Shown: positions 4,702 through 45,888, counted from the first letter of the stretch. The stretch: 64,000 bases of DNA from Candidatus Amesbacteria bacterium GW2011_GWB1_47_19 (GCA_001002325.1 LCNZ01000004.1:3818-67817), one strand, 5' to 3'. Translations and numbers: made by a program. Notes: generated from the letters alone by a model not told the origin.

Positions 4702-6732
4702 ATGGATATCCAGCTGATTGCTCTTTTTGCCGCTCCGGCGACAGCCCTAATAGCCCTGGTCTACGGGCTTTACCTGACCAAAAACATTCTTAAACAGGGT
4801 GAAGGGGAGGGGAGACTCTTACAGATCGCCACTGCCGTCCGCGAAGGCGCCATGGCCTACCTTCGCCGCCAGTTTTCCGTTGTTTTCCCCATTATGGGCA
4901 TCCTGGCAGTAATTATCGCCCTGGTACCTTCACTGGGATTGGGAATAGCCGTCACCTTTCTGGTGGGGGCGATTTTTTCGGCTGTGATTGGTTATTTCGG
5001 CATGTGGATCGCCGTTCGGGCCAATATCCGGACCGCAAAAAATGCCGTGGTCGGTCTCAATCCCGCCTTGAAAGTCGCTTTCAGCGCCGGGACCGTCAAC
5101 GGAATGCTCCTGGTCGGCCTGGGTTTGTTGGGTGTCTCCCTCATTTATATGTGGGCTTACTTCACCTACATTTCCCAGGGGGCTGCGTCTGTAGCCAAAC
5201 ATGCCACCGATGTCCTGGTGGGTTACGGATTCGGAGCTGCACTATTGGCATTGTTCATGAGGGTTGGTGGCGGCATTTTTACCAAGGCCGCGGATGTCGG
5301 TGCCGATCTGGTCGGCAAAGTCGAAGCCGGTATCCCAGAGGACGACCCCCGCAATCCTGCCACAATAGCCGACAATGTCGGGGACAATGTGGGTGACTGC
5401 GCCGGCATGTCCGCCGATGTCTTCGAGTCGTATGCCCTTACCATTGTCGCTGCCATGATTTTGGGCGGTACCATGTTTGGCCTCAAGGGAGTGGTCTTTC
5501 CGCTTTTAGCCCGTTCCGGAGCAATATTAACCTCCATACTGGGAACTTTCTTCGTCAAGGCCAGGGATGAAAAGGAAGATGCCATTAAACCTCTGATCCG
5601 GGGTTTTGTCGTCTCTGCGGTAGCTGCCATCATAATTTTTATGGGTTTGGCGGTTTTTCTCCTGGGTGAACCCCGGGCAGGTTACGCTGCTGTCTCCGGT
5701 ATTGTTTCCATGCTTGCTCTGCTGTACGTCACCAAGTACTACACCGGTCCAGGCGAAAAACCGGTGGTGGCCATCGCCAATGCCTCCAAAACCGGTGCCG
5801 GAACCAATATCATCGCCGGTATATCAATTGGTATGGAATCCACTTTCGTCTCCACCTTAATCATTGTTGCCACGATTCTCGCCGGTTACTACTTCCTGGG
5901 CTTTTACGGCATTTCACTGGCTGGTATGGGCATGTTGGCTACCACTGGCATCATTATGGCTTTAGATACTTTCGGTCCCATCGCCGATAACGCCCAGGGG
6001 ATGGTGGAAATGGCCGGACTCAAAGGCAAGGCTCCTGCAGTTACCGCCGGATTGGATGCCGTCGGTAATACCACCAAAGCCCTGACCAAAGGTTTTGCCG
6101 TGGGTAGTGCCGCTGTCGCCGCTTCCTCACTATTTGCCACATACTTCGAAGCCACCGGATTGACCGCCATCGATATCTCCCTCCCCAAAGTTTTTATCGG
6201 CCTGCTGGTTGGTTGTTCTCTGCCGTTCTTATTTTCTTCCCGTCTCATCGGCTCGGTCGGTCGGGCGGCATTCCAGGTGGTTGAAGAAGTCCGCCGTCAA
6301 TTCCGCACTATCAAAGGCATCATGGAAGGCAAAGCCTTGCCCGATTATTCCAAAGCTGTAGACATAGTGACTTCAGCCGCCCAAAAAGAGCTGATCATAC
6401 CCGCTGCCATCGTGGTCACCATGCCTTTATTGGTCGGGTTTTTGGGAGCTCAGACCCTAGGTGGATTTTTGGGGGGAGTTGTCGCCTCCGGTCTCATGCT
6501 GGCTCTGTTTATGTGCAATACCGGCGGTGCCTGGGACAATGCCAAGAAATATATAGAGGACGGTAATCTTGGCGGCAAAGGCAGTGATGCCCATAAAGCC
6601 TCGGTGGTAGGGGATACAGTAGGGGACCCTCTCAAAGATACCGCTGGACCGGCATTAAACCCTATGATGAAAATCGTCCAGATCGTCGCTCTCCTCATCG
6701 CCCCGTTAGTCATTAAATTTTTCGGTAAATAA
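4702..6732 (+). CDS. hppA: Membrane-bound H+/Na+-translocating pyrophosphatase
   Basis: GADLVGKVEAGIPEDDPRNPATIADNVGDNVGDCAGMSADVFESY V-PPase signature. 676 aa, polytopic. Confidence 0.9.
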   Translation: MDIQLIALFAAPATALIALVYGLYLTKNILKQGEGEGRLLQIATAVREGAMAYLRRQFSVVFPIMGILAVIIALVPSLGLGIAVTFLVGAIFSAVIGYFGMWIAVRANIRTAKNAVVGLNPALKVAFSAGTVNGMLLVGLGLLGVSLIYMWAYFTYISQGAASVAKHATDVLVGYGFGAALLALFMRVGGGIFTKAADVGADLVGKVEAGIPEDDPRNPATIADNVGDNVGDCAGMSADVFESYALTIVAAMILGGTMFGLKGVVFPLLARSGAILTSILGTFFVKARDEKEDAIKPLIRGFVVSAVAAIIIFMGLAVFLLGEPRAGYAAVSGIVSMLALLYVTKYYTGPGEKPVVAIANASKTGAGTNIIAGISIGMESTFVSTLIIVATILAGYYFLGFYGISLAGMGMLATTGIIMALDTFGPIADNAQGMVEMAGLKGKAPAVTAGLDAVGNTTKALTKGFAVGSAAVAASSLFATYFEATGLTAIDISLPKVFIGLLVGCSLPFLFSSRLIGSVGRAAFQVVEEVRRQFRTIKGIMEGKALPDYSKAVDIVTSAAQKELIIPAAIVVTMPLLVGFLGAQTLGGFLGGVVASGLMLALFMCNTGGAWDNAKKYIEDGNLGGKGSDAHKASVVGDTVGDPLKDTAGPALNPMMKIVQIVALLIAPLVIKFFGK

Positions 6733-6754
6733 TAAGCGATTAAATAATCTTGCT

Positions 6755-7012
6755 ATGACGGAACAAATCCCGGAAAAATTGCCTCAATTTTTCATTATCG
6801 AAGGCTGCCCGGCAAAATTAGTGTATTCTTCACAATCTTTTCCGAACGTGGGAGACCTGATTTTAACGGTATGTGAACTGGCAGACAGGCGTCCCCATTT
6901 AACTATTACTGCCGTCAGAAAAAAAGCTCTGTCGTCTTGTACCTGTAGATTGGCTGAATCAGGATTGTGTCCCTTATTGCAGCAAACACAACAAACAGCT
7001 GTAGAAAAATAA
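6755..7012 (+). CDS. Small Cys-containing hypothetical protein (85 aa)
   Basis: ORF only. Five Cys (CPAKL, VCEL, SCTC, LCPL). Confidence 0.3.
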   Translation: MTEQIPEKLPQFFIIEGCPAKLVYSSQSFPNVGDLILTVCELADRRPHLTITAVRKKALSSCTCRLAESGLCPLLQQTQQTAVEK

Positions 7013-7081
7013 CCCCCCCGTTAACCGCTTTTTTCCCTTGCTTTAGAATGCCGAAAACGGTAAGATAATTGGGTCAAAATT

Positions 7082-9601
7082 ATGCCTTCCGATCCCGAAC
7101 AACAAACCTCCCCGATTGGCACAGTCATTTCCGCGGAAATTACCACGGAAATGCAGAAAAACTTTCTGGACTATGCCATGTCGGTAATTGTCGCCCGGGC
7201 TTTACCGGATGTCCGGGACGGCCTAAAACCAGTCCACCGCCGTATTCTGTTTGCCTGTCATGATATGGGACTGCGTCCCGGTGGTAAGCACAGCAAGAGT
7301 GCCAAAATCGTCGGTGAAGTATTGGGTAAATACCACCCCCATGGCGATGTTCCTGTATACGACGCCCTGGTCCGATTAGCCCAGGATTTTTCCATGCGCT
7401 ACCCGCTGGTGGACGGCCAGGGAAACTTCGGCTCCATCGACGGGGATTCTCCCGCCGCCATGCGCTATACGGAAGCCAAACTGGCCCGGATTGCCGAGGA
7501 AATGCTGGTGGACATCGAAAAAGAAACCGTGGATACCGTGGAAAATTTTGACGGTACCCTCAAAGAGCCGGTTTTTCTGCCCGCAAAGCTCCCCAATCTC
7601 CTGCTGATGGGATCCGAGGGTATTGCCGTTGGTATGGCTACCAAAATTCCGCCTCATAATCTTTCCGAGGTCGTGGACGCGGTCTCGTACCTGGTAGATC
7701 ACCCCGAGGCCACCGTCGAAGAACTGATGCAGTTTATAAAAGGGCCTGATTTCCCCACCTATGGGGCAATTTATGATACCAAAGCCATCGCCGAAGTCTA
7801 TTCCACCGGCCGGGGCAGAATCGTCGTCCGGGGCAAAGCCGAAATTGAGGAAGGCAAATCCGGAAAAACTCAGATCATTATTTCCGAACTGCCGTATCAG
7901 GTAAACAAAGCCGAGCTGGTGGCCCGTATTGCCGATCTGGTCCATCAGAAAAAAGTGGATGGGATTTCCGATCTGCGGGATGAATCAGATCGGGACGGTA
8001 TCCGGGTAGCCATAGATCTCAAACGGGACGCCAAACCCAAGAGTATCCTCAATAACATTTACAAACACACCGCTCTTCAGACCACTTTCCCCGCCAATTT
8101 TGTCGCCCTGGTAGACGGTACCCCCCAGACCCTGGGTTTGGTCCAAATTCTCAGCGAGTATATCAAACACCGCCGTCTGGTCATCACCCGCCGGTCTGAA
8201 TATGATCTGCGCCAGGCAAAAGCCCGAGCTCACATTCTGGAAGGTTTAAAGATTGCCCTGGACCACCTGGACGCGGTCATAAAAACCATCCGGGAATCTC
8301 CCGATGCCGATGCAGCCAAATCCAGCCTCATGTCCCGGTTCGGTTTGTCCGAACTTCAGGCCACTGCCATCCTGGATATGCAGCTGCGGCGTTTGGCTGC
8401 CCTGGAACGCAAAAAAATCGAGGACGAATACAAAGCCGTTTTGGAATTGATTGACCGTCTGGAGGATCTTCTGGCTCATCCGGAAAAAATTCTGGCAGTG
8501 ATCAAAGACGAATCCGCAGCCCTCAAAGAAAAATTCGGTGACGAACGTCGTACCCGGGTTTACAAGCTGGGAATCGGCGAATTCTCCGAGGAAGACCTTA
8601 TTCCGTCGGAAGACACCGTAGTTACCGTTACCGCCACCGGCTACATCAAACGCCAGAATCCCACCGCTTTCCGCACCCAGCACCGCGGGGGTAAGGGAGT
8701 TACTGGCCAGACCGTCAAAGATGAAGACGAAATTTCCCACATCATTACAGCCAACACCCACGACGACATCCTCTTTTTTACCAATCTGGGTCGGGTATTC
8801 AAAATAAAGGCTTATGATTTGCCTGAAGGCAGCCGCCAGGCCAAAGGTCAGGCGGTGGTTAATCTCATCAACATCGGAGGCGAGGAAAAACTCCAGACAA
8901 TTTTAGCCATGGGTAAAAACGGTGCATCTAAATTCCTGCTCATGGCCACGAATAAAGGCACCATCAAGAAAAGCAAATTGTCCGACTTTGACCATATCCG
9001 GATATCCGGCATTATCGCCATCAAACTGGAGTCCGGTGATAATCTCAAATGGGTCAAGACTACCACCGGCTCCGATCAGATTTTACTGGTTTCCAGAAAC
9101 GGCAAATCCATCCGTTTCCGGGAAGAAGACGTCCGGCCTACCGCCCGGGATACCATGGGAGTCCGGGGAATAGAACTTAAAACCTCGGATTACGTTGTCG
9201 GTATGGAAATATTCCCCGGTAATAAACAGGCTCCCGCAGACCGCCGCCGGAAAACATTCGAAGACGTCCTGATAATAACTGAAAGGGGCTTGGGCAAGCG
9301 TACTTCCGTTCGCCTCTGGCCATTGCAGAAGCGCGGTGGTCAGGGCGTAAAAGCCGCCAGCCTGACAGACAAAACCGGGCTTTTGATTGCCTGTATCGGA
9401 GTTGACGAAAATGTGGACCAGATAGTGTTAACCAGTCGTTCAGCCCAGATTATCAAACTGCCTCTTAAGAACATCCCCAATCTGGGTCGCGATACCCAAG
9501 GGGTAATTCTCATGCGTTTTTCCCAGAAAGGTGATTTCGTCGCCGCCGTCACCTGCCTGGAAAAAGACACCGACGAAAAACCCGCTGAAAAATCAAAATA
9601 G
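7082..9601 (+). CDS. gyrA: DNA gyrase subunit A
   Basis: DGLKPVHRRILFACHDMGL and AAMRYTEAKL motifs. 839 aa. Confidence 0.92.
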   Translation: MPSDPEQQTSPIGTVISAEITTEMQKNFLDYAMSVIVARALPDVRDGLKPVHRRILFACHDMGLRPGGKHSKSAKIVGEVLGKYHPHGDVPVYDALVRLAQDFSMRYPLVDGQGNFGSIDGDSPAAMRYTEAKLARIAEEMLVDIEKETVDTVENFDGTLKEPVFLPAKLPNLLLMGSEGIAVGMATKIPPHNLSEVVDAVSYLVDHPEATVEELMQFIKGPDFPTYGAIYDTKAIAEVYSTGRGRIVVRGKAEIEEGKSGKTQIIISELPYQVNKAELVARIADLVHQKKVDGISDLRDESDRDGIRVAIDLKRDAKPKSILNNIYKHTALQTTFPANFVALVDGTPQTLGLVQILSEYIKHRRLVITRRSEYDLRQAKARAHILEGLKIALDHLDAVIKTIRESPDADAAKSSLMSRFGLSELQATAILDMQLRRLAALERKKIEDEYKAVLELIDRLEDLLAHPEKILAVIKDESAALKEKFGDERRTRVYKLGIGEFSEEDLIPSEDTVVTVTATGYIKRQNPTAFRTQHRGGKGVTGQTVKDEDEISHIITANTHDDILFFTNLGRVFKIKAYDLPEGSRQAKGQAVVNLINIGGEEKLQTILAMGKNGASKFLLMATNKGTIKKSKLSDFDHIRISGIIAIKLESGDNLKWVKTTTGSDQILLVSRNGKSIRFREEDVRPTARDTMGVRGIELKTSDYVVGMEIFPGNKQAPADRRRKTFEDVLIITERGLGKRTSVRLWPLQKRGGQGVKAASLTDKTGLLIACIGVDENVDQIVLTSRSAQIIKLPLKNIPNLGRDTQGVILMRFSQKGDFVAAVTCLEKDTDEKPAEKSK

Positions 9602-11064: not shown

Positions 11065-11766
11065 ATGGATTATCGGGATTTGAGTTTTGTCCAGTACAAA
11101 ATCCTCTCCGGCTTCATCAGGTCACCCGGCCTGTCTTATTCCCATGCCCAACCCGAAAATATAGACAGGGACCTTTACAAATATCATCTCAAATTCCTGG
11201 TAGAAAAGGGAATACTTTCCAAATCCGGTTCAGTATACCGGCTGACGGATGCAGGTAAAAAATTGGTCCAGTATCTGGACGTGCACGGTGATACACATCC
11301 CACTTTCAAGATTTCGGTTCTTTGCTACGTTCTTCGCAATCATTCAGAGTTGTTAATGCAAAAGCGCTTGCGGCAGCCATTTTTTGGTGACATAGATGTC
11401 ATTTCCGGTAAAATTCAGCCCGGGGAAACTCCCGAAAATGCGGCCGTCCGCAAATTAGCGGAGGAGTCCGGACTTTCCGCCTCATTTTCCTTTCTGGGGG
11501 TCATCCGTAAGGTCCGCCGCTGGCCCAAGACAGAAATCTTTGAAGACACACTCTATCATATTTGTCTTGCCGAAAACCCGGCCGGAAATTTGGTAACCGT
11601 TAATGATTTCGGTGAAAATATGTGGGTATCACTAAACCGGGTCCCGGATCTGATTTCGGGCAATATGACTTATACTCCCAACTCCCTCCGGTTGCTGGAA
11701 TTAATATCTGCCCCTCCCAAAGAAACATTCTATATTCACGAAGACATCACCCTCAGCCGGATATAA
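11065..11766 (+). CDS. Winged-helix DNA-binding domain fused to a Nudix hydrolase domain
   Basis: N-term: FVQYKILSGF...YHLKFLVEKGILSKSGSVYRLTDAGKKL (wHTH). C-term: Nudix box GKIQPGETPENAAVRKLAEESGL (GX5EX7REUXEEXGU, first E changed to K). Confidence 0.6.
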   Translation: MDYRDLSFVQYKILSGFIRSPGLSYSHAQPENIDRDLYKYHLKFLVEKGILSKSGSVYRLTDAGKKLVQYLDVHGDTHPTFKISVLCYVLRNHSELLMQKRLRQPFFGDIDVISGKIQPGETPENAAVRKLAEESGLSASFSFLGVIRKVRRWPKTEIFEDTLYHICLAENPAGNLVTVNDFGENMWVSLNRVPDLISGNMTYTPNSLRLLELISAPPKETFYIHEDITLSRI

Positions 11767-13693: not shown

Positions 13694-15220
13694 ATGTTTT
13701 CTTTAGCTCTTTTTATCGGTCTTTATTCATATGGGGTATTTTTCCTAGGAATAATAGGCTGGTTAACCCGCCCCGACATCTTCCTGTTCACCCTGATTTG
13801 GTTAATATTATTGATAATTTATATATTAAAAATTGATTTCAAACCTGCCCGTCCGGCAGGTGGGTTTCAAATTAACAATTTAAAATTAGATTCTCTTTCC
13901 CGGCTTTTTCTGCTGCTGATTTTTCTTCAGCTACTTATTAATCTTATAGGTGCTCTGGGGCCGGAATTGGGTTTCGATGCCCTCTGGTATCATCTGACAC
14001 TGCCTAAATTATGGCTTTCCGAAGGCTTTTTAAAATTCTATCCCGGGCCGATAAACAAATACTCCGTCATGCCCATGCTCACCGAACTGCTTTATATTCC
14101 CGCAGTTGCTCTCGGTAGTGCCGTCTGGGCAAAACTCATCCATTATTCCTTCGGTATTCTCACCCTATTCGTCACTTACCGGCTTTCCCGCAAATTTCTC
14201 ACCGTCCGCTACTCGTTATTGGCCGTATTGATTATGTCATCCAACCTGGTTTTCTCCTGGCAACAGGCTACCGCCTATATCGATCTGGCCAGAACTTTTT
14301 TTGAATCTCTGGCATTATTACTCTTCCTGGAAAATAAATTTTACAAAAGTGCCGTGTCCCTGGGTTTGGCCGCCTGTACGAAATTATTAGCTTTAGGCTC
14401 ACTACCAATATATTGGATTCTGCTATGGTACCAAAAACGGTCTGTAAAATATGCGATTTACTATTTACTAATAACGGTTATCTTGATTTCCCCCTGGCTT
14501 CTTCGTTCATATCTGGCCACCGGTAATCCCGTTTATCCGTTCTTCTCGCCCATGCTTGACGAAACTTCAATCTCACTGAATCCACTCGACATCTGGCGTC
14601 TGTTTATCTCCTCATCCGACCCCGTCAACCCGATACACTTAATAGTACTGCCTTTGGTGTTCCCCCAATTTCTTAGGCTTAAACTTAAACTTAGGCTAGT
14701 ATCTGTTTATTGTCTCCTGTCATTACTGGTCTGGTGGCTCACCCCCCGCACCGGCGGCGGCCGGTTTATCCTGCCGTATCTTCCCGCCTTTTCCGTTCTG
14801 ACCGCTATCATAATTTTCGAACTCCGGGATAAATTTATAAGAAATTTCCTGATTTATTTATCCCTGATATTATCCATCATCTCCATTTCATATCGCTTTG
14901 CCGCCAATACAAAATACCTACCCGTAATTTTCGGCCTTCAATCCCGGCAGGATTTTCTGTCAAAAAATCTGAATTTTTCTTTCGGCGATTACACCGACAC
15001 AGATAATTACCTGACTGCCATCCTTCATCCCTCCGACAAAATTGCCGTGCTGGGCATTAATAATCTGTTTTATATTCCCATAGCTCATATCACAGACGAC
15101 GTTTCCGGCGCCGATTATCTGCTTATCCGCTATACCGATTCGGATTTCGCTCCTGATTCTTCCTGGATGTTATTACACGAAAATCCGCTCACCCACACCC
15201 GCCTTTATCGCCATCCCTGA
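13694..15220 (+). CDS. Polytopic membrane protein, GT-C/PMT_2(ArnT)-like putative glycosyltransferase
   Basis: More than 10 TM segments. Loop GFDALWYHLTLPKLW resembles the DExxY-type loop of GT-C transferases. Weak. Confidence 0.4.
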   Translation: MFSLALFIGLYSYGVFFLGIIGWLTRPDIFLFTLIWLILLIIYILKIDFKPARPAGGFQINNLKLDSLSRLFLLLIFLQLLINLIGALGPELGFDALWYHLTLPKLWLSEGFLKFYPGPINKYSVMPMLTELLYIPAVALGSAVWAKLIHYSFGILTLFVTYRLSRKFLTVRYSLLAVLIMSSNLVFSWQQATAYIDLARTFFESLALLLFLENKFYKSAVSLGLAACTKLLALGSLPIYWILLWYQKRSVKYAIYYLLITVILISPWLLRSYLATGNPVYPFFSPMLDETSISLNPLDIWRLFISSSDPVNPIHLIVLPLVFPQFLRLKLKLRLVSVYCLLSLLVWWLTPRTGGGRFILPYLPAFSVLTAIIIFELRDKFIRNFLIYLSLILSIISISYRFAANTKYLPVIFGLQSRQDFLSKNLNFSFGDYTDTDNYLTAILHPSDKIAVLGINNLFYIPIAHITDDVSGADYLLIRYTDSDFAPDSSWMLLHENPLTHTRLYRHP

Positions 15221-15283: not shown

Positions 15284-15856
15284 ATGGGCAGAAACAAAGC
15301 TAAAACATACTCCCAACCCGATGAAACCACCTGCGGACCGGCCGCTCTCAAGACCGCCCTGGAAATTCTGGGAATACGCAAATCCCTGCCTGGACTGGTA
15401 AAGCTCTGCGGTACCAACAAAAATGGCACTTCGGTAAAGAAACTTATCCGCGCGGCAAACCAGCTGGACTTGGCAGTACTGACGGTTGAATGGGCCACCC
15501 TGCGCCATCTGCATGCCGCTCTCAGGCACAATTCCCAAAAACCTTTAGCCGTCATTGTTGACTACCTCTATGATCTAGACCGGGATTATTCCCCGGACGA
15601 AGAATCAGGCCATTATGCAACTGTTGCCTCTTTTTCCGGCCGTCAGGGAAAAATCGTCCTTTTCGATTCCTCCAGCGGCGGACGTAAATCATATCTCTGG
15701 AGCGAATTTCTCGACCGCTGGTACGACTATGATTACCGCCGTATCAAAAACCGCCGTTCAAAAAAATGGCACAATCGGCTGATGCTTATACTGGCCAGGG
15801 ATGCCAGTCATCTTCCCCGGTTTACTACCTCCACCGCCAAACTCCACCTGCCTTAA
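15284..15856 (+). CDS. Cytoplasmic papain-like cysteine peptidase, C39-like domain
   Basis: QPDETTCGPAALKTAL (Gln oxyanion plus catalytic Cys) and GHYATVASF (His). No signal peptide. Confidence 0.55.
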   Translation: MGRNKAKTYSQPDETTCGPAALKTALEILGIRKSLPGLVKLCGTNKNGTSVKKLIRAANQLDLAVLTVEWATLRHLHAALRHNSQKPLAVIVDYLYDLDRDYSPDEESGHYATVASFSGRQGKIVLFDSSSGGRKSYLWSEFLDRWYDYDYRRIKNRRSKKWHNRLMLILARDASHLPRFTTSTAKLHLP

Positions 15857-16236
15857 TTTCTCTCAATCAGCCGTTTTTCGGCCCTTTTAGCCCCGAACCA
15901 CTTCTTACAGAACTCAACCGTTTTGTCTGCATCAAACCACTTACACGAAAAGATATTCAGGTATACGGACAGTTTATATTCGGAAAAATGTCCTGTCACC
16001 GAGCTGGTCTCGATCAACTGCACCAGGGAATAGCCTGACGTAACAGGATTTTCATGGCCGAAGTGGGGTATTAACGGCTCACCGTATCTTTTCATTTTTA
16101 TTACATCACGGCACAGTTTGATCACAAACTGCCTGATACCTTCCCCGTCTGAAATTTTCTTCAGATCGCACTCATACAAATCCAGGATCAGCTCCTGGCC
16201 GAATTGGTCATCGGTAATTCCGTTTTTGGTAATCAT
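15853..16236 (-). CDS. Pyruvoyl-dependent decarboxylase of the SpeH/AdoMetDC (PF02675-like) family with non-canonical cleavage site
   Basis: GQELILDLYECD...LIETSSVTGHFSEYKLSVYLNIFSC aligns with SpeH ...YECD...[25 protein letters not shown]. The ES cleavage dipeptide is replaced by TS(S). Confidence 0.6.
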   Translation of the reverse strand: MITKNGITDDQFGQELILDLYECDLKKISDGEGIRQFVIKLCRDVIKMKRYGEPLIPHFGHENPVTSGYSLVQLIETSSVTGHFSEYKLSVYLNIFSCKWFDADKTVEFCKKWFGAKRAEKRLIERN

Positions 16237-17291
16237 ATTCCCGGTGCGGCCAACAAAAAGTGCCTCTCCCGGATCCGGTCCGGTAAGCGGCCGTATACTC
16301 TTTTATAAGCGATCGCTACCAAAGATTCAATAAATTCCTCATAAGACCAACCCAAAGCCTGCACTGATTTCAAGGTAGCGTCCTGATCGTCAAACCTGTT
16401 CAGGCTGGGGCTCATATTTAAATCCACCACGTACGCCCGGCCCCGATCGTCGATCCGGATATCCAATCTGGCAATATCCCTGCACCCGAACGCCTTGTAC
16501 GCCCTTATCGCCAGCTTTTCCAGTTTTGAGGACAACCTATGGCTAACATTGGCAGGAGCCGTCACCCTGGCCCCCCAGTATTCCCAGGATGCCTTTTCCC
16601 ACTTGGCATCATAAGTATAGACATTCCAGTTATCAGCAAACTCGCCTGTAAACTCCAGCTCGCAATACGGCAGTGCCACTACATGCCTGCCGTTACCCAT
16701 GACAGTCACATGTATTTCCCGTCCGTCTATATATTCTTCCGCAATTACTTCCCCGGGGAATTTTTGAAAAACATATTTCACTCTTTCTTCAAGTTCCTGC
16801 TTGTCAATCACCACCGAATCTTGGGAAATTCCGATACCTGCGTGTTGCCCCGAAGGTTTGACTATCAGAGGATAATTTACCCCTCTTATATCATGGACTC
16901 TGGTCCGCCGATTAAAAATCCTGAAATCCGGTGTCGATATACCCAGCTGTTTCATCCTCCTTTTTATCCTGGCTTTCTTGGTGGCGTATTTGAAACACTT
17001 CATATCATGACCCACCTGGGCTCTGTCCAATTCTTCCAGTCTCCGCCCGACCCGCACATACAATTGCCACTCCTCATCTTCCACCAGGTTAAATACCACT
17101 TCCCCCGGAATCCTGACAGCCCTTCGCCAATTTTTTTTGTTCACTTCCTGCACCCGCACCATATGACCTCTGTCTTCCAGAGCCTTGGAAATACCGTCAA
17201 CCGCCTCCATGGTATCCTGCATATCTCCGGCCTCACCGGCGTAGAAAAGTATTGCAGCTGAAATCGGGTAATCAAACAGTAACGGTGTCAT
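16233..17291 (-). CDS. ATP-grasp ligase, D-Ala-D-Ala ligase (Ddl)-like, paralog A
   Basis: NYPLIVKPSGQHAGIGIS, EYIDGREIHVTVMG, YTYDAKWE and GCRDIARLDIRIDDRGRAYVVDLNMSPSL match the Ddl_C pattern. Its stop overlaps the decarboxylase start by 4 nt. Confidence 0.7.
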   Translation of the reverse strand: MTPLLFDYPISAAILFYAGEAGDMQDTMEAVDGISKALEDRGHMVRVQEVNKKNWRRAVRIPGEVVFNLVEDEEWQLYVRVGRRLEELDRAQVGHDMKCFKYATKKARIKRRMKQLGISTPDFRIFNRRTRVHDIRGVNYPLIVKPSGQHAGIGISQDSVVIDKQELEERVKYVFQKFPGEVIAEEYIDGREIHVTVMGNGRHVVALPYCELEFTGEFADNWNVYTYDAKWEKASWEYWGARVTAPANVSHRLSSKLEKLAIRAYKAFGCRDIARLDIRIDDRGRAYVVDLNMSPSLNRFDDQDATLKSVQALGWSYEEFIESLVAIAYKRVYGRLPDRIRERHFLLAAPGI

Positions 17292-18273
17292 ATTTGTTTA
17301 CGAACCTTAACCTGGCATTTTCGACGATGTGGACCAGCAAAGCCGGGAAAGTAAAACCGGCAGCTCTGGCCGATGCCCCGATCCCGCTATCTGGCTCAAA
17401 GTCTATTCCGGGATTATTGTTTATTTCCAATACATACACCGTTCCGTCGCGCACCCGCATATCCAACCGCGGGTAGTCACGACCGCCTAGCTTTATATAA
17501 CTGACTTTAGCCAGATGGTCGACCTGTCGGCTAATTTCCTCCGGCAATTCCGGAATCAACATGTATCCGGCCATACTGTATTCAGGCGAATCCTCCCGCC
17601 ACTTCATGTCGTAAGTCAGAATCGGCAGAAACCCTTTTTTCATCCTGAAACTGACCTCCGCAGGTGGCAAAATCCACGGTCTCCCGTTTTTCTCCAATAC
17701 GGTCACGTGCAATTCCCGACCTTCGATATATTCTTCTACCAATACCGGTTGATTGTATGTCTTCCCCAGCTTTTCCGCTTTTAATTCCGCTTCCCGAACA
17801 TCTCCGGCTACGCTATCCTGAGTAATCCCCTCGCCGCAATGACTATGTACTAGTTTCACAATCACTGGATATTTCAGTCCCTGCAAGTTGATCCCCCGAT
17901 GTGGGTACCATATTCTCCAACCGGGAGTGGGAATGCCATTTTTTTTCATTTCCGCTTTCATCAGCATTTTGTCCGCTGACAATTTATAACCCCGGGGATT
18001 GGACCCGGAGTAGGGGACACCTATTCTTTCCAGGGATTTAATCGTCTCCACCCCCAGAGGGTATTTATCCCCGTCCCACTCCACGAGGTTAAAAACAAAA
18101 TCGCTCCCGGTTATTTTGTGCAGGTCATGGACCTCATCCGGATGGATCCCTACGGCCTTGGTGGCATACCCCGCACCTGCTAATTGTGCGGTTACTGCTT
18201 CTGCCGAAATTTCTGTGTCCTGATCGGATTCACGATCCGACTCGGGCAGATTATATAAAACCGTTACTATCAT
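17272..18273 (-). CDS. ATP-grasp ligase, Ddl-like, paralog B
   Basis: KYPVIVKLVHSHCGEGIT, EYIEGRELHVTVL, LTYDMKWRE and GGRDYPRLDMRVRDGTVYVLEINNNPG. Overlaps paralog A by 20 nt. Confidence 0.7.
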   Translation of the reverse strand: MIVTVLYNLPESDRESDQDTEISAEAVTAQLAGAGYATKAVGIHPDEVHDLHKITGSDFVFNLVEWDGDKYPLGVETIKSLERIGVPYSGSNPRGYKLSADKMLMKAEMKKNGIPTPGWRIWYPHRGINLQGLKYPVIVKLVHSHCGEGITQDSVAGDVREAELKAEKLGKTYNQPVLVEEYIEGRELHVTVLEKNGRPWILPPAEVSFRMKKGFLPILTYDMKWREDSPEYSMAGYMLIPELPEEISRQVDHLAKVSYIKLGGRDYPRLDMRVRDGTVYVLEINNNPGIDFEPDSGIGASARAAGFTFPALLVHIVENARLRFVNKYDTVTV

Positions 18274-18440
18274 AGAACTTAAACATCAAAACTAATCAAT
18301 ATTAAGTGTGAAAAATATTTAAATCGCTGTCAAGTTTTTTTACAACGATATATAGTCGCATTTTGCCGGTTTTATATTCATAAAAACACTTTATCAAAAA
18401 CTATTGCGTTTAGAATATTAATTATTTATAATATTTAATA

Positions 18441-19094
18441 ATGACACCGACAAAAAGCCGTATTACCGCCATATCAATACCACAGGAAACACAAAAACTC
18501 CTTAAACAACTCCAGATCAAGTCCGGCAAAAGCCGGTCATTATTGTTGAGAGAAATGATAAATTATTATGTCTCGTCCGCGCGGCGGGAATCCCGTATCG
18601 CCAAAGCTGACTCACCGGTGACTTTTATTAACGATTCTGATGCCAATCTAATTCTGAAACTTTATCATCGTCTTTTATCTGAAAACCGGCCCAAACCCGT
18701 GGTTGTTGTAGGTATCGCAATTATTAATAAAAAAAATCGGGTACTTATCGGATTGCGTAAATCTACCGACCAATTAATCCGGGATTTGCATTGGACATTT
18801 CCCTCAGGTAAATTTTCCTCACTTAATTTCGAATCGGAACTTGTCAGAACTATCAGCCGTGAAACGGGAATTGACACCAATCCCGGTAATCTTATCCATG
18901 CCCGGCTCATACCTGATTCGCCAAAGAAAAAGGTCCGTATTATCGGTCTTTACTATCATTGCCGGGTTGCTTCCGGACGTCAGAAGCCCGGCGGAGATTT
19001 CAAAGAGCTCAAATGGGTGGATGCCGTAACTGTCAACCGCTTTTTCACCACAAGCGTCGCCGACGAAGTTATGAATTTCCTGGGTAATTTGTAA
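18441..19094 (+). CDS. Ribbon-helix-helix DNA-binding domain fused to a degenerate Nudix-like domain
   Basis: N-term ITAISIPQETQKLLKQL...SRSLLLREMINYY (CopG/Arc RHH). C-term GKFSSLNFESELVRTISRETGI resembles a Nudix box with the catalytic Glu positions partly lost. Confidence 0.55.
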   Translation: MTPTKSRITAISIPQETQKLLKQLQIKSGKSRSLLLREMINYYVSSARRESRIAKADSPVTFINDSDANLILKLYHRLLSENRPKPVVVVGIAIINKKNRVLIGLRKSTDQLIRDLHWTFPSGKFSSLNFESELVRTISRETGIDTNPGNLIHARLIPDSPKKKVRIIGLYYHCRVASGRQKPGGDFKELKWVDAVTVNRFFTTSVADEVMNFLGNL

Positions 19095-19113: not shown

Positions 19114-19362
19114 ATGGCTCCATCCCTCGATGAAATTGCGCGACTGGTATACCCTTCTGACGGAGATGCTGAAGACATGAGATTTTCAATACTGACGCTG
19201 AAGTCAAATTTTGAAGTAGCCTTACCTGCCGGAACCGAAGTTGTTATAGGTCCGGTAAATATGGATAAGGGTGAACATGTCTTTGATGCAACAACCCAAT
19301 TTGGATCTATGAGGAGAATTGTCAGAAACGACGCAGATATATATAAATATCCCGATAATTAG
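19114..19362 (+). CDS. Small hypothetical protein (82 aa)
   Basis: ORF 20 nt after the RHH-Nudix gene. TATAAT 6 nt before the ATG. Confidence 0.3.
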   Translation: MAPSLDEIARLVYPSDGDAEDMRFSILTLKSNFEVALPAGTEVVIGPVNMDKGEHVFDATTQFGSMRRIVRNDADIYKYPDN

Positions 19363-22623: not shown

Positions 22624-23393
22624 TGGACGATACCGTACTCACCAACACCGCTGTCGGTGCAGCCATCAATCACGAATGGAAACTAGCCATCAAACTCAAT
22701 CTCCAACTAGTCAAACAAAACCCGAAAGACATCGAAGCTTTCAACCGTCTGGGTCGGGCGTATTTGGAAACCGGCCAAAAAACCAAGGCGGTCACATCCT
22801 ACAGACAGGTCCTTAAAACCGACCGCTTCAACCCCATCGCCATCCGCGGTCTGGATCAGGCTAAATCCCGTACCATCCATCTGTCGCCCTCTCCAAGATC
22901 CGACTCTCCGCTGCCGATGTTTTTGGAGGAACCGGGAGTGACCAAAATCTTAAATCTTGCCCGTCTGGGAGATCCGAAGACCCTTTCCACACTCCGTCCC
23001 GGGGACCGGGTATTCATCGTAGCCCGGGAACACTGTGTATCCGTCCTGTCACAAAACCGGGAGTACCTCGGTCGGCTACCCGATGACCTGGCTTCCCGGA
23101 TGCGGATATTCCTCAAATCCGGCAATACTTATTCTGCCTGGATCAAATCACTGGATTTACACAGCATCCACTCATCACAAACTTCTCTTAAAATATTCAT
23201 CAAGGAGACCCACCGTTCAACCAAATTTGCCACCACTCCCTCATTCCCGGTTACTGAAAAGCTGACTTATGCCGCTTTCACCCCCCCTGAGCTGGTTCAT
23301 GAAGAAAAACCTGACACCGCGGGTACCGGAGAGGAATCACCGGAATCGGAACCCCAGGCGAGGGTAGATACTGAATTTGAAGCCATGCCCTAG
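22624..23393 (+). CDS. TPR-repeat protein
   Basis: AINHEWKLAIKLNLQLVKQNPKDIEAFNRLGRAYLETGQKTKAVTSYRQVLK (TPR-like). ATG at 22624 preferred over the track start. Confidence 0.45.
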
Positions 23394-24226
23394 TCCCCTC
23401 CCAACCACCACCTTCGGTAGTCTTCTCCCAGTACCAGTTTGATTTCCCTTTTTTCCAGCGTATCGTTTTGACTGAATTTGCAGGCAAACATTCTCTGCAC
23501 CCAACCGGCCGTTATAGATTCCCTAGTTTCTGCGTCAGTCTCCACCCGGCAGCTGTCTGTCTTGTCCGCCTCACCATTGATCATCTCCACCTTCCCTCCT
23601 CCGCTTTCCAGCCACCGGGTAGCGTGTGCTCCCAAACCCGTCACTTCTGTCGCATTCACAACCGATATTTCCATAGCTTCTTCGATAATCTTCACCGCAC
23701 TGAACCTGTCCTTGAGTTGGGCAAACCAGTTCTCGTTTAACTCTCTGGTTTTTACCCCGTCTGCCGACTCTTTATTCCTCAGCCATCCCCCCTGACCCAA
23801 ATCTAACTCTTTCCATTCAGTCCCCTTTGACAAAACTCTCCACTGCCCTTCATCCCAACGGCTCCCTCTCTCGAATCTTCCGTTCCAGAAATATGCGGTA
23901 TAACCCACCCCCAAAGTATCGCTTACTGAATCCGCAGCCCATTTATGACCGTACTTGTCTCCCATTATCTGCATCACCTCCGCCCTCCACCGTCCCCTGC
24001 CGCCCACAGTATCTATTTCCACGTCACCCGGAATTGTTAACTTAATCCCGCTCTTCAGTCGGGCATCCAGACTCATCAACTCGATCAATCCGGATTCAAA
24101 ATTCAGGATAGTAAACCTTTCACCGCCCATCCATGTCCGGTTTCGGTATACATTTATGACGCTGACTGTTACCCATCCGACCACCATCACCACTCCCAAT
24201 CCGGTGATCAGAGGTCTGACCTTCAT
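23390..24226 (-). CDS. Membrane-anchored protein with LytR_C-like C-terminal domain
   Basis: N-terminal TM. ISVVNATEVTGLGAHATRWLESGGGKV resembles the LytR C-terminal domain. Confidence 0.45.
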   Translation of the reverse strand: MKVRPLITGLGVVMVVGWVTVSVINVYRNRTWMGGERFTILNFESGLIELMSLDARLKSGIKLTIPGDVEIDTVGGRGRWRAEVMQIMGDKYGHKWAADSVSDTLGVGYTAYFWNGRFERGSRWDEGQWRVLSKGTEWKELDLGQGGWLRNKESADGVKTRELNENWFAQLKDRFSAVKIIEEAMEISVVNATEVTGLGAHATRWLESGGGKVEMINGEADKTDSCRVETDAETRESITAGWVQRMFACKFSQNDTLEKREIKLVLGEDYRRWWLGGD

Positions 24227-42484: not shown

Positions 42485-43402
42485 GTGGAAAAAGAGATTG
42501 TTCTTAATATTAGCAAAGATCTAAATGGTAATTCTCAACCCGGTGAAATCATTCTTAGGGGGAGAAAGATAGCTACTACACCCTTCACGCGCAGCACGAT
42601 AATTTTCGCTACAAGTGAAGCTGGTAAACCGGTTGTGATTAAGTTCCCCACTAAGAAGAGTAAGGCGGAAAGAGAATGGACTGGATTTTGTAAGGCTTAC
42701 ACAGCAGATGTGCCGACACCTATGCCCATTGCCCTGGTAACAAGCAAGGGAGGTCGCGTTGGAGTAATGCAAGAAGAGGTTGGCGGCCAGAGTCTATATA
42801 AATGTCCGGGGGGACAAGCCAGAATACGATTCGGTGAAATTGTGAAAGATATGCACCTTAAAGTGCCAACTGCGGGAATTGAATGGCAGGAAAAAGGGAA
42901 AGCAGACTATACATATTATGACAAACGCATTCAATGTTGGTCAGAAGGACAGGTTGAATTGTTATCAGCCGGCAGCACAACTCAAGCCATGCTTGGTCTA
43001 CTTTCTCCCACTATGAACAGATCTTGCAGATCTGCACCGCCAATGTTTAATCATAATGACCTATATGACAGTCAAGCGATTGTTGGAGATCAAAAAATTT
43101 ATCTTATCGACTTTGAGGAGTGGGTTGAGGAAAATCCTCTAAACGATATCGCCTATTATCTTTTTCATACTATCAGGTCAAATATGCCAGAAGTTAACTT
43201 CGGTTCATTTCTTTCCGGATATTTAGGAAATGAAGTTTTATCAGAACCAGAAAAACAAACCTTAATGTTTTACCTTTTATTTATATCTGCAAGAGCTTTA
43301 AACTATTTCCATGCATCTAAAAGCAAGTATTTCGAAATAGCGGAAAAATCCCACCGTGCTGTGACAAACTATATTGATAATGAGAACGTCTGGAAAAGCT
43401 AA
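42485..43402 (+). CDS. Phosphotransferase (APH/choline-kinase-like, protein-kinase fold) family protein
   Basis: HNDLYDSQAIV (Brenner-like HxDxxxxN variant) and YLIDFEEW (DFE/DFG-like). GTG start. Confidence 0.5.
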   Translation: MEKEIVLNISKDLNGNSQPGEIILRGRKIATTPFTRSTIIFATSEAGKPVVIKFPTKKSKAEREWTGFCKAYTADVPTPMPIALVTSKGGRVGVMQEEVGGQSLYKCPGGQARIRFGEIVKDMHLKVPTAGIEWQEKGKADYTYYDKRIQCWSEGQVELLSAGSTTQAMLGLLSPTMNRSCRSAPPMFNHNDLYDSQAIVGDQKIYLIDFEEWVEENPLNDIAYYLFHTIRSNMPEVNFGSFLSGYLGNEVLSEPEKQTLMFYLLFISARALNYFHASKSKYFEIAEKSHRAVTNYIDNENVWKS

Positions 43403-43411
43403 CAAATTTTT

Positions 43412-44059
43412 CTATTTGAGAGAATTTACAAAACCCAAGTGTGAATAATCATTTAAATACCATAGTTTCCAAACTTTAGCTTCTTCACGATATATCAATA
43501 GGGATATCCCTGTGGGCTCGATTACCAGAGATCTAAAAAATCGTCTATAGTGATCAGCCTGTGAGTTTTCTCCAAACAGGCAAGTTGATATAAACAACCT
43601 GATAAATCCCTCGTGAGAAAAAATCAGAAGATTTTTTTGAAGATAGTTGTTTATCAAGTAGTCCCTGAACTCTACTGAACGTTTTACCATCTCGGTAAAA
43701 GACTCTTCTTCCAAATCCCATTTCCAGTCCCAATTATTTCCGTTCTGCTGGGCCTCTTTTAAGTATTGCCTGGAAAGGTCTTCGTTACGCGACAGGCCAT
43801 AAACTTTTGAGGATTGGTAGCGTTCTTCTATACCATTAACCATTTCAACTTGCTTATTTAAATTTTCTGCGGCAATCCCGGCTGTCTCAACGGTTCTTAT
43901 CCAATTACTAGAAATAATTTTGTCTACTACTTTAAACCTTGGTAGCTTTCCCAACACTTCGGCTTGCTTCTTCCCTTTTTCACTTAAATGAGTCTCAGGA
44001 GATTGCCACCTTTCCCCTACATTTTCCCCCTCAGCATGTCTGACTAAAAACAGTTTCAT
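43412..44059 (-). CDS. Histidine phosphatase superfamily (phosphoglycerate-mutase-like) protein
   Basis: MKLFLVRHAEGE (RHG/RHA catalytic-His motif). Start chosen at MKLFLV. Confidence 0.65.
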   Translation of the reverse strand: MKLFLVRHAEGENVGERWQSPETHLSEKGKKQAEVLGKLPRFKVVDKIISSNWIRTVETAGIAAENLNKQVEMVNGIEERYQSSKVYGLSRNEDLSRQYLKEAQQNGNNWDWKWDLEEESFTEMVKRSVEFRDYLINNYLQKNLLIFSHEGFIRLFISTCLFGENSQADHYRRFFRSLVIEPTGISLLIYREEAKVWKLWYLNDYSHLGFVNSLK

Positions 44060-44078
44060 CGTTTTGATTGTGTACAGG

Positions 44079-44849
44079 TTACTGTTTCTTGCTACCGATT
44101 GCAATCAACCCAACTATGCTTTCCGTTCTCCCATCTAGGTCCAAAATTTTATTGAACCCTTCATCTATAAACCCTCCAATTGAACAGACTCCTAAACCCA
44201 ATGCCGTGCCAATCAGATAAACGTTTTGGGCAATATGGCCATATTCTGTCATGGTGTGACGGTAACCTCTGTCTTTGTACTTCACTTCAGTCCGGTCAAA
44301 TACTGCTGTTGGTATAATAAAAAATCCTGATTCTTTCAGCCATTCTTGATTTACCTGCTTCAGAGCCTGACTTTTCATATTTTCGGAAGGAATTAACTCC
44401 AAGGAATGAGTTTTTAAATGGTAGTGATAGACTCCATTTTCCAGATTTTGAACGTTAAATATAAATAAATAAATTTCCAAGGGATATCTGGCTCCCGCTG
44501 AGGGGTACATTCGACTTTCAGATTCGGTTTTAACCAAAATTCGTTTCAATCCAACCGAATAGTAGAGAAGGTTACTTAGCTGTTTTAAGCTAACCGGCTT
44601 ACAGGAAAAATTTCTAATGGAGATTCTTGATGAAAGAGCTTGAAATAGGTCGAATCTCTTACTTGAAGGCAACGGAAGTATTATTTGGTCGAACCTGGGA
44701 TAAGCTTTGTAGTAAACCGTTTTCCACTCCTGAGGCCAAGTATTGGACGGAGTTTGCGATTCAAAGTGATTAATCATAGTATAGTTATTGAACTTCCTCG
44801 CAGGGGATAACTTTGTCAACATTTTATAGGCTTTTGAAAGCTTGGTCAT
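44079..44849 (-). CDS. SagB-type dehydrogenase (nitroreductase superfamily; TOMM-class FMN dehydrogenase)
   Basis: SSRISIRNF, RMYPSAGARYPLEIYLF, GVYHYHLKTHSLELI and KYKDRGYRHTMTEYGHIAQNVYLIGTALGLGVCSIGGF match the SagB/ThcOx-type dehydrogenase signature. Confidence 0.75.
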   Translation of the reverse strand: MTKLSKAYKMLTKLSPARKFNNYTMINHFESQTPSNTWPQEWKTVYYKAYPRFDQIILPLPSSKRFDLFQALSSRISIRNFSCKPVSLKQLSNLLYYSVGLKRILVKTESESRMYPSAGARYPLEIYLFIFNVQNLENGVYHYHLKTHSLELIPSENMKSQALKQVNQEWLKESGFFIIPTAVFDRTEVKYKDRGYRHTMTEYGHIAQNVYLIGTALGLGVCSIGGFIDEGFNKILDLDGRTESIVGLIAIGSKKQ

Positions 44850-44862
44850 AAGTTTTACAAAC

Positions 44863-45456
44863 TCATAAAAATGGGTGGGGGAAATTGTTTAATTTTCTTC
44901 TTTCGTTCTTATTAAATCCAATTTTTTGAGACACTTGGTAAAGCCTTTCGCCTCCAAGCAGTTTTCTAGCTTCATTAAGATAAAACGGCTGAGCTTTAGG
45001 AATTATTACTTTAACCACAAAATAATTCATTTTTCTAAAAACTTGGATAGTTATGTCCTTATATAGGATATCAAGTCCAAGTTTTTTAAAAATGTTAATT
45101 AAGATTTCTAACTGTTCCCCTGAAGACCGGCTACTAATACTCTTTGGAATATTAGGCGACGTCTTTTGGGAATTCAGCAAAAAGTTTAGTTTTCCAATTG
45201 CACTTCTTGAATACCACAAGAACCCACGCGTTTTAATGTCGGATCTTTTCATCAGCGTTTCGCGTGTTACTTTCCTATAATGGTTTTCGTATTCAGTTCT
45301 CAGCCAAGTTCGGGTAGTGAAGGTTTCTTCTATCGAACCTACCAATGCTGCAATGGGATCCAGGCTGCATTTCATCCCGACAGATACTGCTTTACCTATT
45401 CCCGTCCGGTTAATTACAACTGTTAAATATGTGGGAACGGGAATATCTGTGGTCAT
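44863..45456 (-). pseudogene. YcaO-domain protein, C-terminal two-thirds only (N-terminal ATP-binding part missing)
   Basis: DIPVPTYLTVVINRTG...VGMKCSLDPIAALVGSIEE resembles the YcaO central DxPVV...GxGxHxDPxxAxxxAxxE segment. DITIQVF...VVKVIIP resembles the YcaO beta-hairpin. Ends NFPHPFL (Pro-rich YcaO-type C-terminus). The ATG overlaps the stop of the kinase fragment. Confidence 0.45.
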
Positions 45457-45469
45457 CTCATAACAGTAA

Positions 45470-45888
45470 TCGGGGTTCTCAGCTGATGTGATGCCATAGC
45501 AATAAATTCCGTTTTCAGTTTATCTGCGATTTTAATTTCCGTCATGTCCTGCTCATTGCCTACAAACCCCACCAATTGACCATCTCCGACAATCGGAGCA
45601 ATTTTTTACCGCAGAGTAATATTCCTGGCCGTTTTTGCGCCGGTTCAGAATTTCTCCCGTAAATACCTTTTTCTCTGTTTTTATTGCCCGCCATAAATCA
45701 TCGTAATATCCCCTGTCCATTAAACCACCCCACAACCGGGGGGTTTTACCCAGCATTTCCTCCAGGCTGTACCCGGTAATTTTCTGTGCCGCCTCATTAG
45801 CATACAAAATCCGCCCGTCCGCATCGGTTATTATCATGTGCTCGGCCGAATTGCTGACCGCCAGCTTGAATTTTTCCAGCTCGTCCAT
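45470..45888 (-). pseudogene. PAS-domain sensor histidine kinase, frameshifted and truncated after the H-box
   Basis: The PAS ORF (ITDADGRILYANEAAQKITGYS...NGQEYY) runs into an A6 homopolymer. The -1 frame continues IAPIVGDGQLVGFVGNEQDMTEIKIADKLKTEFIAMASHQLRTPITVMR (HisKA H-box) and then stops. No HATPase domain follows. Confidence 0.6.

Follow-up and report, generated by a model that had tools for sequence, protein, structure and literature searches.

What product would be made by two ligases of the D-alanine-D-alanine ligase (Ddl) type whose genes are joined to that of a small pyruvoyl decarboxylase? This question is raised by a locus at positions 15284-19094 of a 64,000-nt stretch of DNA (the window) from Candidatus Amesbacteria bacterium GW2011_GWB1_47_19. 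Candidatus Amesbacteria belongs to the Microgenomates of the candidate phyla radiation (CPR), and the source is a tiny, uncultured groundwater bacterium. The locus contains three tandem genes, here called ligA, ligB and speDC, flanked by genes for a C39-like cysteine peptidase and a ribbon-helix-helix (RHH)-Nudix fusion (Table 1). An earlier reading of this DNA (the original prediction) had interpreted the five genes as a module for the synthesis and turnover of an amine conjugate. In the analysis described here, the component identities of the five genes are secure, and ligA-ligB-speDC is tentatively proposed to be a lineage-restricted operon for a putrescine amide conjugate, in which the two ligases would act in turn and the C39-like peptidase would serve as the hydrolytic counterpart. 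This proposal is regarded as possible rather than probable.

A predicted ornithine decarboxylase of the SpeDC branch

The 4-nt overlap with ligB and the AdoMet_dc domain that the original prediction had described for the decarboxylase both stand, whereas its assignment to the S-adenosylmethionine decarboxylase (AdoMetDC, SpeH) family in the functional sense does not. The decarboxylase is 100% identical to a protein of Candidatus Amesbacteria bacterium GW2011_GWB1_47_19. Many AdoMetDC homologs are L-arginine or L-ornithine decarboxylases that arose by neofunctionalization (Li et al., J Biol Chem 2023, PMC10407285). A conserved proline marks the bona fide AdoMetDC, and diagnostic Gln, Thr, Phe and Tyr residues mark the SpeDC ornithine decarboxylases (ODCs; PMC10407285). 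Upon alignment with the AdoMetDC of T. maritima, Ser78, His83 and Cys98 of the window protein correspond to the pyruvoyl Ser63, His68 and Cys83, and all three are invariant in 25 homologs. The proline of the AdoMetDC HTWPE motif is replaced by Ser85, and Glu62, which precedes the cleaved serine in the T. maritima enzyme, is replaced by Thr77. The NCBIfam AdoMetDC model gives 26 bits, relative to a cut-off of 75.65. Based on the loss of the proline and the Glu and on this low score, a bona fide AdoMetDC (SpeD/SpeH class 1b) was rejected.

The SpeDC-diagnostic residues Gln73, Thr77, Phe84 and Tyr92, the positions of which were assigned from the text and Fig. S5 of PMC10407285 and not from the published logo, are invariant in 25 homologs. 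The core of the protein, YSLVQLIETSSVTGHF...YLNIFSC, closely resembles the FSLVQLIETSLVSGHF...YIDIFSC of an ODC-type SpeD2 domain (Figure S5, PMC10407285) and matches the ODC-type SpeD2 pattern of that figure, QLIETS...GHF...Y.D.FSC. The window protein is also 46% identical (E 2e-25) to the biochemically validated ODC-type SpeD2 domain of the Ca. Omnitrophica fusion KXK35843, for which the reference letters come from machine-read supplementary text and a few may be wrong. Homologs of 55-61% identity are found in speD-speE-speDC clusters of Omnitrophota, Clostridia and Deltaproteobacteria, directly after a bona fide speD (ESHISVHTWPE) and speE, which is the speDC context of PMC10407285. From the CPR, the SpeDC of Ca. 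Kaiserbacteria (OGG79367) has measured ODC kinetics and is inactive on Arg and Lys (PMC10407285).

In its fold, in the Ser, His and Cys needed for processing and catalysis, in the four diagnostic residues and in the loss of the proline, the window protein agrees with the published SpeDC enzymes. Judged from these residues, it is predicted to be a self-processing pyruvoyl L-ornithine decarboxylase of the AdoMetDC fold and SpeDC branch. Since the decarboxylase is of the SpeDC type, the amine made should be putrescine. The speDC genes published so far lie in clusters with speD/speE, CASDH/CASDC or hss (PMC10407285). In contrast, speDC of the window lies in an operon with two ATP-grasp ligases, and such an operon is not described in that work. 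As a separate observation, in the Gottesmanbacteria-type loci (L004, L013-L070), the gene after SpeDC codes for a secreted GDSL-like lipase/acylhydrolase (45 loci), and a 171-aa protein without a family match is encoded there as well (38 loci).

Two predicted ATP-grasp ligases with rebuilt D-alanine pockets

LigA and LigB are paralogs (32% identity, E 6e-42), and the best PDB and NCBIfam matches of both are Ddl and Van enzymes, to which they show 17-26% identity. The NCBIfam Ddl models give 118 bits for LigA and 112 bits for LigB. These values are less than half the cut-off of 243 and fall outside family membership, and there is no mur context at the ligases. To compare the active sites, both ligase families were aligned to E. 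coli DdlB, the sequence of which was checked against 2dln. The ATP-, Mg- and acyl-phosphate-binding residues are all kept in both families, as the ATP-grasp fold requires; in LigA, the equivalents of K97, K144, E180, E187, K215, R255, D257, E270 and N272 (DdlB numbering) are retained. In contrast, the determinants of D-Ala binding in Ddl and VanA (the E15-S150-Y216 triad, H63, S281 and L282) are replaced: across both families, Glu stands at H63, Cys or Ala at S150, Trp at Y216, and Gly or Ala at L282. LigA has Cys at S150 and Gly at L282, and in LigB, S281 is additionally an Asp. The region of E15 is aligned with low certainty, as is the loop. Orthologs of LigA are 28-40% identical and thus fast-evolving, and LigB is well conserved.

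Due to the loss of the D-Ala-binding residues and scores under the NCBIfam cut-off, an identity as D-Ala-D-Ala ligase was rejected for both proteins. The same data speak against canonical Ddl enzymes with conserved D-Ala-binding residues, the outcome that the original prediction had named as its refutation. LigA and LigB are instead predicted to be ATP-grasp ligases that belong to the Ddl structural subfamily and have an intact catalytic set but rebuilt D-alanine pockets. The acidic replacements (of His63 in both ligases and of Ser281 in LigB) would suit a cationic substrate, within the uncertainty of the loop alignment. A canonical Ddl search of 1.38 Mb of related loci gave a best score of <= 89 bits; because these loci are centered on the genes of interest, the search is silent on the remaining genome.

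Conservation of the ligase-decarboxylase operon

The open reading frame (ORF) calls place the start of ligB 20 nt inside the end of ligA, as had been described for the two paralogous genes in the original prediction, and the start of speDC 4 nt inside the end of ligB. These stop/start overlaps indicate co-translation. To determine whether the arrangement is kept in relatives, 80 species-level loci around SpeDC homologs were searched with the window proteins. The genes ligA, ligB and speDC are adjacent in the window and in L003 (/L006), L007, L011, L012, L014, L019, L024 and L029, and L077 contains ligA-speDC only, with one ligase. Recurrence in nine other species-level loci places the arrangement beyond chance. 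In L007, the order is ligB-speDC-ligA; the genes are shuffled yet adjacent, which indicates that adjacency outlived rearrangement.

Adjacency of ligase and SpeDC is confined to this Amesbacteria-like clade (the window and nine species-level loci) and to the lineage of L001, L002 and L008. In a neighbor-joining tree, the ligA and ligB clades are sisters, and the two L001 ligases, which are 31-35% identical to both, form a third clade. The L001 ligases flank a SpeDC gene of the opposite strand, with another gene inserted. The ligase-decarboxylase operon is therefore kept in relatives and is independently recurrent in L001, and the chance adjacency that the original prediction had allowed for is not what is seen. 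Both genes also seem to be present on roughly 22 more metagenomic contigs, based on 22 SpeDC and LigB clusters that share longest contigs of identical size, many of which are < 5 kb.

In L003/L006, ligA and a membrane-protein gene are both fragmented (5021-5945 and 7985-9601). A ligA pseudogene was rejected here: because the neighboring membrane-protein gene is broken in the same record, an assembly frameshift is likelier than gene decay.

The five genes do not form one fixed module, as had originally been proposed, since SpeDC and the ligase pair are each widespread alone. Many Microgenomates have LigB homologs of 52-56% identity at sites remote from SpeDC. The ligA-ligB pair is the stable unit, and SpeDC, C39 and RHH-Nudix are its variable neighbors.

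A cluster in a second lineage and the peptidoglycan alternative

In L001 (2983-8377) and L089 (7001-11056), the ligase cluster consists of two Ddl-like ligases, between which lies a 449-456-aa protein with an SFGKDS PP-loop-like motif, and of a short, divergent SpeE-like protein. L001 contains in addition SpeDC and an LdcA-like S66 peptidase (muramoyltetrapeptide carboxypeptidase, E 2e-32). The protein between the ligases gives a weak, position-matched match to MurL (E 1e-5 and 1e-6) that covers residues 270-348 of the 447-position model and reaches 24-27 bits relative to a cut-off of 700. MurL epimerizes a C-terminal L-Glu via adenylation in an ATP-dependent reaction (PMC8788868). A MurD2 partner was not seen in the L001/L089 cluster, and neither a MurL-like nor an LdcA-like gene is present in the window. 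The L001/L089 cluster suggests a ligate-epimerize-ligate route to a D-residue-containing peptide, and this suggestion keeps a peptidoglycan-type substrate in play.

It is considered improbable that the ligases are peptidoglycan enzymes, whether as divergent Ddl substitutes or as enzymes that extend the stem peptide by a residue or a diamine, such as putrescine at the alpha-carboxyl of D-Glu. In structure, nothing comes nearly as close to them as Ddl and Van enzymes, both ligases are conserved across reduced Microgenomates genomes, and the second-lineage cluster holds the LdcA-like peptidase and the weak MurL-like match. There is also precedent, in that diamines are covalently linked to peptidoglycan D-Glu in Selenomonas and Veillonella (Negativicutes), and putrescine limitation induces LdcA in Fusobacterium (PMC12826042). 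The D-Ala-binding residues, however, are not conserved, mur/dcw genes are missing from the window and from the surroundings of the ligases in every locus examined, and the ligase family extends to Acidobacteria, Bradymonadaceae, Wallbacteria and fusions with GNAT domains.

A wider form of this idea, in which Microgenomates and the wider Ddl-fold clade attach a diamine or polyamine to a D-residue peptide, in the extreme case putrescine to the D-Glu alpha-carboxyl of peptidoglycan, is a long shot. It fits because of the LdcA-like and MurL-like genes of L001/L089 and a Nudix-like sensor that would suit a nucleotide-linked precursor. If true, the D-Glu putrescine reading would supply a gene for the diamine-peptidoglycan modification known biochemically from Negativicutes, for which, to our knowledge, no ligase gene has been named. 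None is named in PMC12826042.

The wider ligase family

An exhaustive search for the ligase family returned 242 cluster representatives at E < 1e-30 and 3,759 at E < 1e-10. Members are found in Wallbacteria, Acidobacteria and Bradymonadaceae. Some carry two Ddl-like domains fused in tandem, others are ATP-grasp-GNAT fusions, and there is one L-amino-acid-ligase fusion. The gene context of the wider family was taken from 80 metagenome loci (L092-L171), in which arrays of 2-4 ligase paralogs are common. The tandem-fused double proteins and these arrays are counted in favor of two ligases that act together. Peptidase partners recur in unrelated folds: a Peptidase_Mx zinc-metallopeptidase gene lies directly upstream of the ligases in 14 of the 80 loci, C39-like genes lie close to distant members of the ligase family in L093 and L133, and the partner in L001 is of the S66 fold. 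This pairing of ligase and hydrolase fits the idea of synthesis and turnover in general terms only. The names of the distant relatives are automatic 'D-alanine-D-alanine ligase' labels throughout and are uninformative.

The C39-like peptidase

The peptidase scores 43.9 bits with the Peptidase_C39 model (cut-off 22), and Q11, C17, H110 and D128 are invariant in nine orthologs. The N-terminus has neither a hydrophobic segment nor a signal sequence. These features agree with the signal-less, convergent peptidase with catalytic residues that had been described, and the protein is predicted to be a stand-alone, cytoplasmic enzyme. A single-sequence AlphaFold2 model had a pLDDT of 50, which is too poor for a fold search.

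The gene converges on speDC with a 4-nt overlap of the ORF calls and lies immediately beyond the decarboxylase end of the operon in eight of ten clade loci (the window, L003, L007, L012, L014, L024, L029 and L077). It is absent from L011 and L019, and also from L087, which has no speDC either. The C39-like protein is a candidate hydrolase of the ligase product and plausibly, though not certainly, part of the pathway. It is co-directional with a gene for a 508-aa membrane protein (13694-15220, plus strand) that ends 63 nt upstream. This polytopic protein has no Pfam or NCBIfam match; its gene is syntenic with SIMPL and lies directly upstream of C39 in several Amesbacteria.

Cleavage of double-glycine leaders is the classical role of C39 domains, and microviridin clusters carry two ATP-grasps. 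Both facts were counted for a ribosomally synthesized and post-translationally modified peptide (RiPP) system, in which the ATP-grasps would modify a ribosomal precursor, as in graspetides, and the C39 protein would remove the leader. Such a system was already disfavored and is rated very unlikely. The peptidase is not the N-terminal domain of an ABC exporter, no ABC exporter is present at the locus, and no transporter or precursor gene lies nearby. Likewise, the graspetide combination of a precursor gene and a RimK/MdnC-type macrocyclase was not found at the locus. There is no conserved small ORF nearby, and none of the related loci has a homolog of the 82-aa ORF at 19114-19362.

The RHH-Nudix protein and the divergent promoter region

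The RHH_1 match (23.8 bits, cut-off 20.5) covers residues 11-44, as expected for an N-terminal RHH domain, and the NUDIX match is marginal (22.2 bits, gathering threshold 21.1). In the Nudix box (G123-I144, GKFSSLNFESELVRTISRETGI), the REUxEExGU segment reads RTISRETGI, and the full GX5EX7REUXEEXGU pattern is not matched: a single Glu is kept, and the box is one residue short upstream. The RE and the first E of EE are lost in 5 of 5 orthologs. The degraded glutamates and the divergent position across an AT-rich spacer are in line with the original description. A catalytic Nudix hydrolase is disfavored and ligand binding fits better than hydrolysis, because the box is degenerate in every ortholog. 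By its domains, the protein probably regulates transcription locally and binds a ligand through a Nudix domain without catalytic activity, and it may act as a repressor that senses a nucleotide metabolite. Orthologs adjoin the ligases in L003, L007, L029 and L077, and do not in L011, L012, L019 and L024.

The spacer contains two copies of a 25-nt element (repeat family D1; 18298-18322 and 18414-18438), one beside each gene start. The pattern of this element, AATATT-N10-AATATT, occurs three times in 64 kb (0.01 expected), and two of the three copies are in the spacer. The paired elements are a weak candidate for an operator. The one sigma-70-like match in the spacer (18327-18356) is no more than is found in shuffles. 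A second Nudix-linked putative regulator is encoded within 8 kb of the first: a winged-helix HTH_45 and NUDIX fusion (11065-11766, plus strand; 6e-15) with a nearly intact Nudix box (GKIQPGE-x7-RKLAEESGL).

Organization of the locus and the window

Pfam searches upheld all five domain calls of the original prediction, with E-values of 2.6e-11 for Peptidase_C39, 3.6e-15 for AdoMet_dc, 1.2e-20 (LigA) and 4.6e-29 (LigB) for Dala_Dala_lig_C, 4.3e-5 for RHH_1 and 1.5e-4 for NUDIX.

Table 1 Features of the ligA-ligB-speDC locus, in window positions.
Feature	Position	Strand	Length and domain	Remark
C39-like peptidase	15284-15856	+	190 aa; Peptidase_C39	
speDC, predicted pyruvoyl decarboxylase	15853-16236	-	127 aa; AdoMet_dc	third gene of operon
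ligB, predicted ATP-grasp amide ligase, Ddl fold	16233-17291	-	352 aa; Dala_Dala_lig_C	second gene of operon
ligA, predicted ATP-grasp amide ligase, Ddl fold	17272-18273	-	333 aa; Dala_Dala_lig_C	first gene of operon
Divergent promoter region	18274-18440	no strand	167 bp; AT-rich	spacer between ligA and RHH-Nudix
RHH-Nudix fusion	18441-19094	+	217 aa; RHH_1 + NUDIX	divergent from ligA

The rest of the window encodes housekeeping functions (GyrB, H+-pyrophosphatase, GyrA, SIMPL, Xer, YebC, DnaB, HisRS, a release factor and type IV pilus proteins). The 64 kb contain no mur/dcw genes, no further polyamine genes and no ornithine-forming genes. The GC skew is -0.2 to -0.3 over nearly all of the window, and after 21 kb the genes are mostly on the minus strand. 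An unusual strand composition disparity is known from another Microgenomates genome (PMC7143001). At 42485-45888, the GC content falls to 0.40, relative to ~0.49 elsewhere. This segment codes for an APH-like kinase, a histidine phosphatase, a nitroreductase-family protein and the C-terminal half only of a YcaO cyclodehydratase, followed by PAS/HisKA fragments; it has the look of decayed genes and may be what is left of an azoline-type peptide-modification pair. Finally, a C-terminal LytR_C domain is found in three separate minus-strand proteins (23390-24226, 47591-48589 and 58395-59198).

Discussion

In the proposed pathway, SpeDC would convert L-ornithine to putrescine. Each ligase would phosphorylate a carboxylate, most likely that of an amino acid, and couple it to an amine: one would acylate putrescine, and the other would extend the product or acylate the second amine. 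By the logic of phevamine or glutathionylspermidine, the product would be an aminoacyl- or dipeptidyl-putrescine. The C39-like peptidase would hydrolyze this conjugate or a related peptide, and RHH-Nudix may respond to a small ligand and repress the divergent promoters via the paired AATATT-N10-AATATT elements. A pathway of this type is rated as an ATP-grasp amide-ligase route, independent of nonribosomal peptide synthetases, that acts on a decarboxylation-derived amine. The original idea of a ligase and an amidase that act on an amine conjugate is thus kept as the best hypothesis, with peptidase partners recurrent in the family, and the amine is corrected to putrescine.

Two known systems offer comparisons. 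In phevamine biosynthesis, a modified spermidine receives first Val and then Phe through two ATP-grasps (PMC6187163). The hsv operon of phevamine A (amidinotransferase HsvA and ATP-grasps HsvC and HsvB, which act in that order) has, as here, three genes that combine a polyamine enzyme with two sequential ligases. The amine-side enzyme of this plant pathogen is an amidinotransferase, whereas that of the CPR bacterium is a decarboxylase, and the likeness is one of gene layout and proposed function. In the glutathionylspermidine/trypanothione system, as outlined in PMC2427367, an ATP-dependent carboxylate-amine ligase makes a peptide-polyamine amide, and a papain-like amidase reverses the reaction. 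That system uses a fused GspS-type synthetase and CHAP amidase; here, separate Ddl-type ligases and a C39-type peptidase are present, and Pfam gave no GspS-type synthetase or CHAP amidase match in any of the five proteins. This likeness would be functional only.

Several observations weigh against a putrescine conjugate. In ~65 of the 80 species, SpeDC has no ligase within 10 kb and stands beside unrelated genes, such as that for the GDSL-like lipase. In L087, the YebC-Xer...SIMPL-GyrA slot is the same and the ligA-ligB pair is intact, yet SpeDC and C39 are missing. At this site (5195-9520), an APC-family amino-acid permease gene upstream of the pair and a SET-domain gene downstream replace RHH-Nudix, SpeDC and C39, and the permease may import a substrate that would otherwise be made. 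The ligases of L088 are a pair split by 3 kb, also without SpeDC or C39; in L086, ligB is a singleton beside a ribosomal operon, and the same genome has a lone SpeDC (L066). The genes around ligB in L086 and L088 are of the housekeeping type. L089, a close relative of L001, has ligases without SpeDC. Near the ligases of the 80 metagenome loci, there are no polyamine genes (SpeDC, SpeD or SpeE), and the polyamine link is therefore not family-wide. The Spermine_synth genes of L001 and L089 were downgraded as polyamine evidence, since they belong to a short, divergent subfamily without GGGDG or the aminopropyltransferase motif DSxDP. At the locus itself, a source of ornithine is not encoded within the 64-kb window, C39 may belong with the upstream membrane-protein gene, and the exact AATATT motif is not kept in the orthologous spacers, which carry related ATTATTAAT-type repeats only.

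As an alternative, the ligase pair may make or modify a short peptide or dipeptide unrelated to putrescine, and SpeDC may be a housekeeping polyamine gene captured by chance in one clade; this alternative is unlikely but deserves serious weight. SpeDC and the ligase pair are usually found apart, the pair is retained without SpeDC in L087, and SpeDC homologs (65-80% identical) are far more conserved than their neighborhoods, as expected for a general ODC. The broad family, moreover, has tandem arrays and peptidase partners without polyamine genes, and includes the fusions to L-amino-acid-ligase and GNAT domains. Such a capture is opposed by an adjacency that survives the gene-order change in L007 and recurs with a different paralog pair in L001, and by the stop/start overlap, which indicates selection for co-expression.

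The literature covered contains no work that joins AdoMetDC or pyruvoyl decarboxylases with ATP-grasp ligases and polyamines, or Ddl-like ligases with putrescine. The gene combination is undescribed within this coverage; the amidoligase survey of Iyer et al. 2009 lies outside it and may describe the ligase family. Recognition of the SpeDC ODCs dates only from 2023, and the roles assigned to them so far are confined to feeding spermidine or homospermidine synthesis. Translational coupling of SpeDC to two amide ligases suggests that CPR bacteria make a polyamine conjugate. The physiology of the CPR is almost unknown, and such a conjugate could serve as a cofactor in redox or stress functions, as part of the envelope or as a signal. 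The ligase family, for which no member has been characterized, is routinely mis-annotated as D-Ala-D-Ala ligase, and its members are suspected to be counted at times as Van-type resistance genes. As one of the few family contexts that point to a concrete substrate, the ligA-ligB-speDC operon offers a practical entry point to the function of this family.

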